Source: Bacteroidota bacterium (GTDB lineage: Bacteria > Bacteroidota > Bacteroidia > NS11-12g > UBA955). From it: a stretch of 62,615 nucleotides of DNA. Under the pieces are notes generated by a model. The model was not told the origin of the DNA, searched no databases, and saw nothing but the letters and a program-made list of their open reading frames with translations. Within the stretch, counting starts at the first letter, position 1. The number at the start of each line of letters is the position of its first letter. Positions 9,330 through 13,106 of the stretch are shown here, piece by piece. The DNA lies in contig JAIXYV010000011.1 in assembly GCA_027490055.1 (NCBI GenBank), positions 1-62,615 of the forward strand, given 5' to 3'. Both the position numbers and the translations under genes were made by a program.

Positions 9330-11072
9330 TTATTTCTTCAACCATGCTTTTAATATCACATCGTCGCCATTGTCGACGCTCAGTTGCAGGTCGTATTTCG
9401 GACTCTTTTGAGTCTCCAATGTAATCGTTCTGATTAAGCCTGCTCTGCTTATTAAAATGCTGTAAGGTGATGTGCTGTTTTTTAATACTTCATCTAAACT
9501 GATTTTTACTCTAATGTCATTCACTGCCAGTATCTCGTCGCCGGCTTGTAGGCCCGATTTCCAGGCTGGCGAATTTAGCTCTACCCAGCGAACCAGCATC
9601 TTATCACCTTTCTGCTCAGTGGTAATGCCTGTGAAATGCATGTTGCTCTGCTCGCGATTCGATAAAGTACACGCCGCTTTCTTCATCACTTCTGTGAGTT
9701 TTCCGAGGGTATTGACTTCGTTTAAGCCTGTTGCCCAGTCTTTAAAGTTGAGCGACTTCCCGGCAATCTTATCAATGGCAGCATAGAACTCATCATCGCT
9801 AAAGCCTCTTTGCTTTCCTATGTAGAACTCCTGATACAAATACTGCATCAATTGATCTAATCCTTTCTCTCCCTTAGTGGCTGATAATAATTCTATATCC
9901 AGTAAAGCTGCCAATGCTGATCCTTTAAGATAATAGGAGATGTTATTATTGGTGCTGTTTTCGGTTGGACGGTATTCTTTGATCCAGGCATCAAATGAGG
10001 CGTCGTGCATGCTCTGAACTTCGCCGCCCTTGCGATTAAGGGTTGCCGTAAAGGTAGAGGCTAATGTTTTGCGATAGTCACTCTCGCTCATAAAACCCGC
10101 TCTGTACATTGCAAGTTCATCGTAATAACTGGTGATGCCTTCGGCTACCCACAATAGATTGGTGTAGTTTTCTTTGCTGTAATCAAACGGTCCGAGTGCT
10201 GCCGGACGAATGCGTTTAACATTCCATAAATGGAAATATTCATGCGCACACAAGCCTAAAAAGGCTTTGTATCTATCGGCATTGCTGTAGTTGAAACGAG
10301 GCATCTGCACTACACTGCTGTTGGCATGCTCTAGTCCGCCTCCGCCTTCTTCCACGTGGTGAACAATGAACAGGTAGGATTTACACGGATGCGCTCCTAT
10401 AATATTGTACATGGTCTGACACACTTTGGTAAGGTCGCGCACAAATGTCTCTGTATTGCAATTGTTTCTGCCTACCATGGCGACTTTATGTGGCACTCCT
10501 GCAACTTCAAATGTCAGTTCGCTGTGATTGCCAATTTCTATTGGCGAATCTACCAACTCGTCGTAATTGTTAAATTTATAAGTGTTGTTGCCTGCACTCT
10601 CTAGGGTTGTCGATACCTTTGTCCATGCTGCCGGAAAGTTAAGCGTGAGCTGACCGCCGTTTTTGTATCCTTCTGCATACATCAGACAACTCGTTAATAA
10701 TAAAAACGCGTGGTCGTTGTCAATATAAGAGGTACGAACAGATTGCTCGAAGCAATAAATCGGGTAGGAGATGGTGACGCTGGTCTCACCCATTAAATCT
10801 ACTACCCAGGTACTTTTGTCTTTCTTGCTGATTTTTCCTTTACCTGATTTTACTGTAACTCGGTCTATATTCTTCTCAAACTCTCTCACCATATAACTGC
10901 CAGGGGTCCACACAGGCATTTTAAATTCTGCCGTTTTTGTTTTAATGCCCGTCAGGGTAATGTCTACCTGAGCATAATGTGAGTTCGGATTGTCAATGCT
11001 GATCTTGTAAGAAAGTTCTGCCTGTAATTCTGATACCATAAATAATACAATTGCTGAAATAATAAATCTCAT
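9330..11072 (-). CDS. M61 family (glycyl) aminopeptidase with C-terminal PDZ domain
   Basis: MPVWTPGSY, GGGLEH, HEYFHLWN, LWVAEGITSYY, ISYYLKG, SPAWKSGLQAGD. Start moved to the ATG at 11072 (signal peptide MRFIISAIVLF); the ORF track starts at 11135. Confidence 0.92.
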   Translation of the reverse strand: MRFIISAIVLFMVSELQAELSYKISIDNPNSHYAQVDITLTGIKTKTAEFKMPVWTPGSYMVREFEKNIDRVTVKSGKGKISKKDKSTWVVDLMGETSVTISYPIYCFEQSVRTSYIDNDHAFLLLTSCLMYAEGYKNGGQLTLNFPAAWTKVSTTLESAGNNTYKFNNYDELVDSPIEIGNHSELTFEVAGVPHKVAMVGRNNCNTETFVRDLTKVCQTMYNIIGAHPCKSYLFIVHHVEEGGGGLEHANSSVVQMPRFNYSNADRYKAFLGLCAHEYFHLWNVKRIRPAALGPFDYSKENYTNLLWVAEGITSYYDELAMYRAGFMSESDYRKTLASTFTATLNRKGGEVQSMHDASFDAWIKEYRPTENSTNNNISYYLKGSALAALLDIELLSATKGEKGLDQLMQYLYQEFYIGKQRGFSDDEFYAAIDKIAGKSLNFKDWATGLNEVNTLGKLTEVMKKAACTLSNREQSNMHFTGITTEQKGDKMLVRWVELNSPAWKSGLQAGDEILAVNDIRVKISLDEVLKNSTSPYSILISRAGLIRTITLETQKSPKYDLQLSVDNGDDVILKAWLKK

Positions 11073-11120
11073 TCTGCAAATATGCTGTAATAACTCAGCT
11101 TTAACAAGCAAATTAAGGGC

Positions 11121-11149
11121 ATAAAAATAGCCCACATTAAGTGGGCTAT
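11121..11149 (-). terminator. Intrinsic terminator of the left small-gene unit
   Basis: Minus strand reads ATAGCCCAC-TTAAT-GTGGGCTAT-TTTTAT. Confidence 0.88.
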
Positions 11150-11199
11150 CAACTCTAGATTTTGTGTATTTGTATTTGTGTGTGTCGTGTTGGGGTTTC

Positions 11200-11409
11200 C
11201 TAGGTGTTTAAGCCAATTAGAAACAAGGCGCTAAATAATGATACAATAGCAATGGTCTTAGTAATACGGTCTGCCATAACAGCACTGATTAAATAAGGCT
11301 TCTCAATTTCTTCTTGTGTGTTGTACAATTCATACGGTAGTCCGGTAAAGCGACTCGCTTGATGAACTTCTAATCCACTGTAGGTGCTGAAATTGGTTTG
11401 ACGTTGCAT
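11200..11409 (-). CDS. 69-aa small protein with a C-terminal hydrophobic helix
   Basis: ORF lies between its own promoter (11489-11504) and terminator; C-terminal TIAIVSLFSALFLIGL. Confidence 0.6.
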   Translation of the reverse strand: MQRQTNFSTYSGLEVHQASRFTGLPYELYNTQEEIEKPYLISAVMADRITKTIAIVSLFSALFLIGLNT

Positions 11410-11488
11410 AATTATTATAAGGTTTTTAGCAGGCTTTTTGATAGGTTTAAATACTCAAAATGTATTAATACTTAAATTTTTCAAATGG

Positions 11489-11504
11489 CCTATACCCAAA
11501 TATA
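11489..11504 (-). promoter_or_regulatory. Promoter -7 element and start region of the left unit
   Basis: Minus strand TATATTTGGGTATAGG, identical to 11938-11953 on the plus strand. Confidence 0.8.
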
Positions 11505-11937
11505 GACAACAAGTAATTCATGAATAAGTTTTTCTTAAAATTTCTATAAATATATTGTAAGTACTTGAAATTAAGTAGTATAATTTTTAATTGAGATCTG
11601 GTTTGTTATTGTTTTTTCAGGTTTTAGTTCTGAGCCTGAACTTAAAATGCGCCATTTTCTTCTTAAAGCTTTTTTTAAAAACCTTTTAAATTTAACGATT
11701 GATTTATTATTAAAATATATTAATGTTTTACCTGTTTGGGCTGATGTTAAAATATATGTATGATTTCTAAGTTTGATTTCGACTTAGTACCCTGGTTTTT
11801 AAAAATGAAACTGTATTTTTATCCTTGAATGGGCAAACTTTACGCTTGGAATAAAAAATTTTCAATTTGAATATCAGGTGTTTATGATCTAAATCAAAGT
11901 TTTTTTTCGATCTTGTTAAAATCATCAGATGGTTTTT

Positions 11938-11953
11938 TATATTTGGGTATAGG
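11938..11953 (+). promoter_or_regulatory. Promoter -7 element and start region of the right unit
   Basis: TATATTTGGGTATAGG (matches the TAnnTTTG consensus). Confidence 0.8.
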
Positions 11954-12027
11954 GTATTAAAACAATGTGAGTTTTATTACTTATTAAGTAGAAAATCCTA
12001 ACAAAAAACAAAAAATAAAATACTAAT

Positions 12028-12228
12028 ATGAACAACTCTGCAACACTAAAAAACAACAGTAAAAAAGGTTTTTACTTCACCGAAATCTTAATGCTTAAAT
12101 CTATTATAGCATTATTAATCCTGACTTTCTTTTTATTAAACGAGATGCAGGCATCTAACCACGAATCAAATACCATGAATGATCATAAAGGCTACAAGGT
12201 TTGCGAATCAAATCCTGAAAGCCACTAA
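12028..12228 (+). CDS. 66-aa small protein with a central hydrophobic helix (TM or signal peptide)
   Basis: ILMLKSIIALLILTFFLL; A-rich region before the ATG; own promoter and terminator. Confidence 0.6.
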   Translation: MNNSATLKNNSKKGFYFTEILMLKSIIALLILTFFLLNEMQASNHESNTMNDHKGYKVCESNPESH

Positions 12229-12282
12229 ATCTTTCATTATAAAAAGACACACACACAAATACACAAAATACCTCTAAAGACT

Positions 12283-12310
12283 ATAGCCCACTTCGGTGGG
12301 CTATTTTTAT
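12283..12310 (+). terminator. Intrinsic terminator of the right small-gene unit
   Basis: ATAGCCCAC-TTCG-GTGGGCTAT-TTTTAT. Confidence 0.9.
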
Positions 12311-12410
12311 TTCCATTAGATTTTTCTTTTATAGCTTTTCGATAAAGAAATGTCTTCAATTCTTAGATATCAGCTTGCATTCTTTATCTTTGTGTCACTA
12401 AACACTATCA

Positions 12411-13106
12411 ATGAACACCGTTTTGCCGCCATTTGTACCACTCTCAATGGTACTCTCTCTTTTCCTCTGCGTATTTTGTTTCTATAAAGCTTCTGGGAAT
12501 GCCACCAGGGTGCTTTCAGTTATTTTAGCTTTTGCTGCTGTTCAGGGATTAGCAGCCTTTCTTGGTTTCTACTCGCAGTTCGATGCAGTGCCTCCCAGAT
12601 TGCCACTTTTAGTCCTGCCGTCTTTTGCTCTAATTGCGCTCTTATTTGCTTTTCCAATGAGCAGAGCGTTTCTCGATGCTATCGATCCTTCGTGGCTTAC
12701 TTTTTTGCACATTGTCAGATTTCCAATTGAATTAGTCTTGTATTGGCTTTTCTTGTTTGATCTGGTGCCAGAGCTCATGACCTTCGAAGGTCGCAACTAC
12801 GATATACTCTCAGGCATCACAGCGCCTTTTATTGCCTATTGGGCTTACATCAAAAAGTCTATGAACCCGAAATGGTTGCTGGTATGGAATTTTATCTGTC
12901 TGGCTTTGTTACTGAATATCGTTATTCAGGCTATCCTGAGTGCACCCGGACCCTTTCAGCAATTATCTTTTGAACTGCCTAATACGGGTGTATTCTATTT
13001 CCCATATGTTTGGCTGCCATCTATTATCGTGCCTCTGGTGTTTCTGTCGCATGTCATCTGTATCCGACAATTGATTAGAACCTTGTCGCTTAAGCACGGT
13101 GCTTAA
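12411..13106 (+). CDS. Multi-pass membrane protein of unknown function
   Basis: About 7 hydrophobic segments, GRNYDILSG, FPYVWLP; TATCTTTG promoter at 12385-12392. Confidence 0.75.
   Translation: MNTVLPPFVPLSMVLSLFLCVFCFYKASGNATRVLSVILAFAAVQGLAAFLGFYSQFDAVPPRLPLLVLPSFALIALLFAFPMSRAFLDAIDPSWLTFLHIVRFPIELVLYWLFLFDLVPELMTFEGRNYDILSGITAPFIAYWAYIKKSMNPKWLLVWNFICLALLLNIVIQAILSAPGPFQQLSFELPNTGVFYFPYVWLPSIIVPLVFLSHVICIRQLIRTLSLKHGA

Follow-up and report, generated by a model that had tools for sequence, protein, structure and literature searches.

In Salmonella and E. coli, the small RNA (sRNA) GcvB pairs with C/A-rich sites in the start regions of many related envelope and transport mRNAs, and SroC, which has a complementary site inside an mRNA of the GcvB regulon, acts as a sponge and gives rise to cross-talk between mRNAs, as outlined in PMC4474525. 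In Bacteroides thetaiotaomicron, the members of the multicopy sRNA family FopS/GibS share a promoter motif and carry a single-stranded seed followed by an intrinsic terminator; the predicted targets are enriched for outer-membrane proteins, the RRM-1 protein of the system is RbpB, and FopS is held in Rfam (summarized in PMC11697453). Here, we describe a region (positions 11121–12310) of a contig of 62,615 nucleotides from a Bacteroidota bacterium (JAIXYV010000011.1; hereafter, the window), in which two small-protein genes, A and B, stand back to back between similar non-coding parts. The region is best explained as a pair of single-gene units that are transcribed separately and whose products are small single-pass membrane proteins unrelated to each other. 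The C/A-rich tails of these units contain a stretch that is the exact complement of a conserved stretch at the ends of secreted-protein genes elsewhere in the genome, a match that points to an undescribed regulatory circuit between RNAs. For this circuit, GcvB with its mRNA-derived sponge SroC is the nearest working analogue, and FopS/GibS with RbpB is the nearest in the phylum; the elements described here belong to neither.

To our knowledge, post-transcriptional control in the Bacteroidota is poorly known; Hfq is lacking, and the few sRNA circuits described so far are mostly from gut Bacteroides. Elsewhere, dual-function RNAs combine the coding of a small protein with base-pairing, as in SgrS/SgrT and SR1/SR1P. 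Type I toxin–antitoxin loci consist of a gene for a small hydrophobic peptide with long conserved untranslated regions (UTRs) and a perfectly complementary RNA, and some type I antitoxins act by pairing at the 3′ end of the mRNA.

The source genome (G000; 3.0 Mb, 96.8% complete) was analyzed within a set of 33 genomes of one uncultured freshwater Chitinophagaceae genus, and 104 genomes from 23 other genera of the same order were scanned as an out-group. Three models were used, namely R1 for the 5′ block of the units, R2 (a structure model) for their 3′ block, and R3 for a G/U element found elsewhere in the genome. Units A (minus strand, 11504 to 11121) and B (plus strand, 11938 to 12310) are each approximately 370 nt long and have their parts in the same order. 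An earlier note on this DNA had listed five common parts, i.e., a promoter 16-mer, a leader box, a box ahead of the ATG, a C/A-rich tract, and a terminator, and all five were found where that note had placed them, as real, ordered blocks far above chance expectation. The 16-mer occurs exactly twice in the window (11489–11504, minus; 11938–11953, plus; 0.03 expected), with no further exact copy in the whole genome. The leader box is likewise present in both units (11450–11471, minus; 11954–11975, plus; 0 expected), but this match is out of register with the family-wide alignment, the distance between box and 16-mer being 17 nt greater in A than in B, because the leader is built of ~17-nt repeats of one near-palindromic word; in unit A, such repeats, of the TRAGTAT..ATAC type, lie at roughly 11435–11475 (minus). 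The pre-ATG box, CCTAnCAAAAA, is where it had been reported (11435–11445, minus; 11997–12007, plus) but is not significant alone, with two or more matches in six of 100 shuffles. The C/A-rich 16-mer is found at 12253–12268 with no mismatches and at 11160–11175 with one (0.13 expected). The terminator hairpins are seen in the pairwise alignment of A and B and are both matched by R2 (E ~7e-11); a scan with the terminator consensus reported the hairpin of B (12283–12304) and not that of A.

The first eight bases of the 16-mer correspond to the Bacteroidota sigma-A −7 box. In Flavobacterium, the sigma-A consensus TAnnTTTG sits at −12 to −5 from the start site, as given in PMC9723704. This spacing places the predicted transcription starts near 11492 and 11950, in agreement with the ends guessed in the earlier note. 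The A-rich stretch before each ATG fits the Shine–Dalgarno-less initiation regions of the phylum, A-rich initiation regions being described as typical of Bacteroidetes (PMC6847099).

Comparison with the closest relative, G006, indicates that the non-coding parts of the units are constrained. The 433-nt spacer between the units has the same length in both genomes and is 50% identical, versus 84–90% for the 5′UTRs, 82–90% for the 3′ blocks, and 82–92% for the units; BLASTN did not align the spacer to relatives. In distant species, for which synonymous sites are saturated, the 5′ block is still 58–72% and the 3′ block 45–68% identical to G000. Further copies of the units, anticipated in the earlier note, are present in relatives (BLASTN, R1, and R2 searches). 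Gene B was found in 13 of the 33 genus genomes and gene A in 10, all of which also hold B; the two genes are divergent in six genomes and arranged in tandem in four. Within the genus, the units span ~340 nt from promoter to C/A tract and encode two protein families.

The coding parts are constrained as well. In the nine pairs unsaturated at synonymous sites, the ratio of nonsynonymous to synonymous substitution rates (dN/dS) is 0.05–0.13, with values against G006 of 0.12 for A and 0.06 for B. A and B are genuine conserved coding genes under strong purifying selection. The idea that the coding sequence decays while the UTRs persist was therefore overstated, given these ratios and a core of B that is invariant at 21 positions across 22 sequences. 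What stands of the selection on an RNA or regulatory scaffold that had been proposed is that the UTR blocks are constrained; the non-coding scaffold is selected alongside the proteins, not in their place.

In protein A (68–75 residues across the family), a KPxLIS motif is conserved, as is a hydrophobic helix at the C terminus (residues 49–67 in the 69-residue A), and protein B (64–75 residues) has a central transmembrane helix (residues 19–37), in or around which all of its invariant columns lie. Each protein has one 19-residue hydropathy window with a mean of 2.1–2.4, and the best explanation is that A is tail-anchored and B has a central helix. The two open reading frames (ORFs) show no detectable similarity, as had been noticed before: BLASTP gave no alignment at E ≤ 100, hhalign returned a probability of 0.2%, and there was no match in alternative frames. 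In a six-frame profile test on 18 units, the B profile matched B units only and the A profile A units only, a result that gives no support to a frameshift relation between A and B. Pfam yielded no family for A and, for B, a best match of 18.1 bits against a cut-off of 27. Together, these searches do not point to ordinary diverged paralogues of a known family, a case that the earlier note had set against its own reading.

A and B are orphan families. A search of the ESM Atlas gave no usable match for either protein, and among 5.8 billion database proteins, 21 relatives of B and five of A were found, all of them unnamed or hypothetical proteins of Chitinophagaceae or of Bacteroidia metagenome-assembled genomes, except for two that carry automatic JGI names. 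The B profile, searched against 1.84 billion representatives, gave eight matches at E ≤ 1e-10, three of which were already in the query alignment. We consider it highly probable that both are true small-protein genes, regulated together and with UTRs under constraint. In one genome, an A-like segment (G048:C82:2878–3099; E 1.2e-11) lies within an open frame of 1400 codons with a weak leader match just upstream, and this segment may be a fused or read-through form of A. An origin of the units from a mobile element was rejected; there are only two copies per genome, and in those genomes with A that were inspected, an M61-like signal peptide with a leaderless-type start lies downstream.

Only A and B carry the 3′ block. 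R2 gave 19 matches in 13 of the 33 genus genomes, all within a few hundred bases of A or B coding matches, and nhmmer found the block in two copies in G000, those of units A and B, and no other. The C/A tract of unit B is a 17-nt perfect complement of the G/U tract found behind genes for cargo of the type IX secretion system (T9SS), with a duplex energy of −23.5 kcal/mol. The tract of unit A forms 15 contiguous Watson–Crick pairs with the same G/U tract, or 17 counting one G–U wobble (−22.0 kcal/mol); random windows have a mean of −11.4 kcal/mol (standard deviation 3.0; 3000 windows). Cofolding of the B tract with the G/U tract produced a 17-bp intermolecular helix in which both terminators were kept, and the C/A tracts are unpaired in single folds. 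The exact G/U 15-mer is present in six copies in G000, five after T9SS genes and one as the antisense of B, where 0.017 would be expected; in a control with 200 shuffled 15-mers, the mean was 0.055 and the maximum two copies. Identity between the reverse complement of the B tract and the G/U element is limited to 17 nt, and the flanks are unlike, so the match does not stem from an inverted copy of a larger segment.

The G/U module of G000 occurs in five copies, each consisting of the tract and, 4–7 nt on, a terminator; the copies follow tandemly arranged T9SS cargo genes, at 17–29 nt from the stop codon. R3 gave 32 matches in 13 of the 33 genus genomes and none in the 104 genomes outside the genus. 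Among the 26 listed copies outside G000, which come from 12 other genomes, the 18-nt core is identical in 24; the terminator stems differ, and three copies have a wholly different hairpin. Thirty copies were examined, of which 22 follow a long frame with a T9SS-type end and eight are free-standing, with no frame of more than 50 codons before them. None of the free-standing copies that were inspected shows an ATG before the tract, and some have a −7-like box upstream. R2 and R3 occur together in 11 of the 33 genomes, R2 only in two, R3 only in two, and neither in 18, the four discordant genomes being 52–92% complete. Scanning of the T9SS array with its G/U elements against Rfam (cmscan) gave nothing relevant, and for window positions 10500–13000 the same approach gave three chance-level matches, with 18–27 bits against gathering scores of 37–50. 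Hence, two features of a 3′UTR-borne sRNA or sponge are found here, namely a conserved unpaired tract beside an intrinsic terminator, as seen in alignments and folds, and an extended complementarity of 15–17 nt that is kept across species. The complementarity lends support to the idea, raised in the earlier note, of dual-function sRNA/small-protein genes.

Several loci with G/U modules have features of their own. The tandem array in G000 (G000:C29:10500–19494, L093) comprises at least four paralogous T9SS cargo genes (580–600 residues), each of which comes with a promoter and a leader motif of its own, a start region rich in C/A, and a G/U 3′UTR. On G017:C102, three G/U modules lie within 1.2 kb, one after an 87-codon ORF with a sorting-domain-like end and two after no frame of more than 50 codons. 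Free-standing modules at G014:C29 (L108), G020:C7 (L117), and G019:C3 (L122) have a different terminator and are preceded by several TTGTTACAA-like words, possibly a site for a regulator. A small hydrophobic ORF of 30 codons, D, lies behind a regulon-type promoter in G000 (G000:C113:7685–7777, minus) and in G046 (G046:C4, L066); in both genomes, a 12-nt copy of the G/U sequence is present in its 5′UTR, 29 nt before the ATG.

The G/U seed also finds C/A-rich sequence at the starts of cargo genes. When the 1705 ORFs of G000 were ranked by how well their start regions pair with the seed, the cargo genes took places 9, 10, 11, 31, and 73, and in G046, G023, and G021, six of seven genes with a G/U 3′UTR are at or below the 2.8th percentile for start-region pairing; two start assignments, those of the 600-residue gene (TTG start) and of G023 L128, are probably wrong. 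Hfq (PF17209) was not found in G000, which gives no indication of Hfq dependence. Two RRM_1 proteins of ~100 residues are encoded in this genome (G000:C41:23397–23606 and G000:C115:21990–22199), and a Bacteroides RRM-1 protein binds sRNAs, as described in PMC11697453.

In the circuit that we propose, the G/U tract would be the seed of a small-RNA family whose members are 3′UTR-derived or free-standing. The mRNAs of A and B, or 3′ fragments of them, would pair with this seed through their C/A tracts, and the transcripts would act as high-affinity sponges or would be targets marked for co-degradation. The seed would also match the C/A-rich translation start regions of T9SS cargo genes, such that the circuit would tie the levels of the small-protein mRNAs to how strongly secreted surface proteins are translated, a coupling like that of SroC and GcvB in enterobacteria. 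Whether A and B are co-regulated small-protein mRNAs whose 3′UTRs pair with a G/U-seed RNA family, as a GcvB/SroC-like sponge or target, appears to us to be evenly balanced. A more far-reaching version, which we regard as tentative and rather doubtful, is that A and B are dual-function genes, each providing a membrane protein and a 3′UTR decoy for G/U-seed RNAs that repress C/A-rich secreted-protein starts, in a Hfq-independent, lineage-born system that tunes the type IX secretome.

The putative circuit would resemble GcvB/SroC, as far as PMC4474525 describes it, in having a G/U seed that faces C/A-rich start regions and a second complementary site in an mRNA of the same regulon. Unlike in that system, the candidate seed RNA is attached to, or derived from, the 3′UTRs of T9SS cargo genes and exists in many paralogous copies, the putative sponge is the 3′UTR of small-protein mRNAs, no Hfq was found, and there is no sequence relation. 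The likeness to FopS/GibS and RbpB, within what PMC11697453 reports of them, lies in a paralogous RNA family with a shared promoter motif, an unpaired seed and a terminator, and in the presence of RRM-1 proteins in G000. In contrast to FopS, neither the units nor the G/U element matched any family in Rfam; the G/U modules are mostly 3′UTRs of protein genes, and A and B are coding. As in SgrS/SgrT and SR1/SR1P, one transcript would combine a conserved small ORF with a conserved pairing region, but here the pairing region is a 3′UTR tract beside the terminator, and regulation could run in either direction. We found nothing in print on these elements in a literature search that covered DUF6089, small RNAs and UTRs of Chitinophagaceae, and small proteins of Bacteroidetes, supplementary files not being covered.

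A number of observations weigh against the proposed circuit. The RNA species, their ends, and their interaction are all computed predictions. The co-occurrence of R2 and R3 is confined to one clade and is not phylogenetically independent, and three genomes (G014, G020, and G024; 93–99% complete) have B without A. A looser search for the tract, allowing up to two mismatches, was dominated by promoter-like noise, the motif being no commoner than its reversed control (37 versus 28 matches), and the tract resembles the promoter region of the regulon itself. The pairing site lies ~300 nt from the start codon, a distance at which it is hard to see how the translation of A or B would be controlled, and since both the C/A and the G/U tracts are invariant, covariation between them cannot be observed. 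C/A-rich start regions are common among the secreted-protein genes of G000, and part of the start-region pairing signal may be compositional. The leader shared by the regulon occurs in mixed orientation relative to genes and has no helix with covariation support. Finally, one T9SS cargo gene of G000, on contig C56, carries the C/A orientation in its 3′UTR, which implies that orientation is not strictly tied to gene class and leaves room for a DNA-level or protein-bound motif. At this gene end (G000:C56:7600–7760; L095 ~1180–1260), a C/A-type tract with a 13-nt complement of the G/U seed is followed by two hairpins.

A rival explanation is an old tandem duplication of one transcription unit. 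The coding part of one copy would since have lost all recognizable similarity, with the promoter, the operator-like leader, the unstructured 3′ spacer, and the terminator retained because they set the level of expression. The C/A tract would then have no pairing partner, and the G/U match would be a common DNA or protein-recognized word related to the regulon promoter. The adjacency, equal length, and common part order of the units are consistent with this explanation, as is the finding that the leaders of A and B are as similar to each other (66%) as are A leaders from different species (66%). So are the resemblance of the tract to the promoter core, with the motif merging into the promoter-like background at two mismatches, the single cargo gene with the tract in the opposite orientation, and the occurrence of the leader in both orientations relative to genes. 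Duplication leaves several things unaccounted for, namely the identity of the 18-nt core in all but two of the copies listed for 12 other genomes, next to hairpins that change; the existence of tract-plus-terminator modules without an ORF; the position of the tract, which is always within the transcript and just 5′ of the terminator; and the exact complementarity of 15–17 nt between elements with unlike flanks. We consider this explanation possible but somewhat improbable. Concerted evolution of the leaders within a genome left no sign, the identity of A to B being 66.3% within the same genome and 65.9% across genomes.

Other roles for the C/A tract were considered and set aside. Across 14 units, the z-scores for pairing of a unit's own 5′UTR with its own 3′UTR ranged from −1.6 to +2.3. 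Regulation of the shared leaders by the tract was rejected as a general rule, since nine of 10 leaders fell between the 13th and 97th percentiles of random windows, and only the leader of small ORF D stood out. Inspection of the C/A tract by eye showed no TAnnTTTG box that could serve as an antisense promoter.

The earlier note had also suggested type I toxin-like mRNAs, that is, A and B as small hydrophobic peptides controlled by an RNA antitoxin. Each protein is indeed small with one hydrophobic helix, and an RNA perfectly complementary to the mRNA 3′UTR is predicted to be encoded elsewhere in the genome. Unlike at type I loci, no antisense or adjacent RNA gene was found, the only neighboring non-coding DNA being the unconstrained spacer, so the absence of an antisense partner or conserved element adjoining the units leaves this suggestion unsupported. 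In addition, the proteins have 66–75 residues with conserved soluble parts, the genes are single-copy and syntenic rather than multicopy, and the T9SS cargo genes that carry the complementary RNA lie at distant loci. We regard a toxin role as very improbable; the protein-family search behind this covered Pfam but not PADLOC or NCBIfam.

The 5′ block, in contrast to the 3′ block, is not private to A and B, since other genes are headed by the same leader. R1 gave matches in 22 of the 33 genus genomes, with up to 11 sites per genome, and none in the 104 genomes of other genera. In G000 and its relatives, the leader heads genes for a DUF6089 outer-membrane barrel, a small membrane protein C, secreted proteins of 170–186, 466, and 541 residues, and an array of 580–770-residue proteins with a T9SS C-terminal sorting domain (Por_Secre_tail matches, E 9e-15 to 3e-11). 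This common leader strengthens the idea of a co-regulated cassette, also raised earlier, and we infer that the leader is the mark of a lineage-specific envelope regulon. Family C (61–82 residues) is itself an orphan family and was observed behind the leader at G000:C47:12857–13102 (L043 1358–1603, minus) and at G023:C19 (L081); a 210-residue protein of G023 has its N-terminal 30 residues in common with C. Profile comparison showed C not to be homologous to A or B (hhalign 1.9% for B and C).

The leader might act as DNA or as RNA. For an RNA-level element that controls the stability or translation of envelope mRNAs, as a platform for an RNA-binding protein or as a target of a trans-acting sRNA, it can be said that in every strong case the motif lies within the predicted 5′UTR, downstream of the −7 box, that short repeated words (RRGUAU..AUAC) recur ~17 nt apart, as in multi-site protein platforms, and that G000 encodes RRM-1 proteins. 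The alignments provide no sign of a structured 5′UTR element such as a riboswitch, thermosensor, or leader, for which compensatory changes would be expected: RNAalifold gave five pairs only, all in or flanking the promoter box (alignment columns 1–14), with no structure in the transcribed part, and none of five candidate helices in the leader was above shuffles, 61–500 of 500 shuffles reaching the observed covariation score. At the T9SS cargo loci and one other locus, the leader core scores better in the orientation antisense to the gene, by up to 11 bits, and each repeat is near-palindromic, as preferred by dimeric DNA-binding proteins. Because there is no RNA structure above shuffles and the orientation at the T9SS loci is antisense, we lean toward the DNA reading, i.e., tandem near-palindromic operators downstream of the start, as the more likely one, and hold an RNA-level leader to be unlikely, though worth keeping in view. 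Targets of the RNA-guided transcription factors dCas12f–sigmaE and TldR are described in PMC13472631 as contiguous guide matches beside a guide RNA and a dCas12f or TnpB-like gene. Such a target was judged unlikely here; the conserved positions of the leader are spaced and near-palindromic, not contiguous, and dCas12f/TnpB-like genes were not searched for.

The features of the two units are collected in Table 1.

Table 1. Predicted features of units A and B and of the spacer between them (window coordinates)
Feature	Position	Strand	Remarks
Unit A sigma-A type −7 box (TATATTTG)	11497–11504	minus	Invariant in 26 of 26 aligned leaders; predicted start ~11492
Unit A 5′UTR, ~83 nt	11410–11492	minus	Leader motif and A-rich stretch before ATG; R1 E 1.8e-16
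Gene A, 69 residues	11200–11409	minus	From ORF list
Unit A 3′UTR C/A-rich tract, predicted unpaired	11155–11186	minus	Fold and alignment
Unit A intrinsic terminator	11121–11150	minus	9-bp stem ATAGCCCAC/GTGGGCTAT and U run; R2 matches 11121–11186, E 7.8e-11
Spacer between divergent promoters, 433 nt, AT-rich	11505–11937		No conserved element found in spacer
Unit B sigma-A type −7 box	11938–11945	plus	Predicted start ~11950
Unit B 5′UTR, ~78 nt	11950–12027	plus	Leader motif and A-rich stretch before start codon; R1 E 5.6e-17
Gene B, 66 residues	12028–12228	plus	From ORF list
Unit B 3′UTR C/A-rich tract, predicted unpaired	12246–12271	plus	Fold and alignment
Unit B intrinsic terminator	12283–12310	plus	9 pairs, loop of 4, T run; R2 matches 12248–12310, E 7.2e-11

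Contigs from four RNA libraries (three studies) cover positions 11183–11470 and 12047–12271, which is weak evidence for expression of the units, as such libraries can contain DNA and the contigs do not show strand, ends, or level. Positions 10900–11169 and 11494–12033 are covered by no contig from the four runs, an absence that does not count as evidence.

Two neighboring genes were noted. Downstream of unit A lies an M61 peptidase gene, in which a −7-like box (CATATTTG) ends 5 nt before an ATG at 11072 (window 11062–11090, minus). The mRNA of this gene is predicted to be leaderless, with a start later than the GTG of the listed ORF (9330–11135); the same arrangement of −7 box and ATG is visible in G006, G005, G023, and G013. 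Downstream of unit B, a 231-residue multi-pass membrane protein with no Pfam family is encoded at 12411–13106 (plus).

The locus leads to a compact, testable circuit in environmental Chitinophagaceae, the parts of which are a multicopy, near-invariant 18-nt seed, sequences in the tails of two orphan small-protein genes that complement it exactly, and others at secreted-protein starts that do so in part. As a proposal, mRNA cross-talk through a seed and sponge pair reaches beyond what the earlier note saw. The genus-specific leader or operator motif and three or four orphan small membrane-protein families are defined independently of this circuit. If true, the circuit would be an example of 3′UTR-mediated mRNA-to-mRNA cross-talk governing the T9SS secretome and would show how unrelated genes acquire common non-coding modules.

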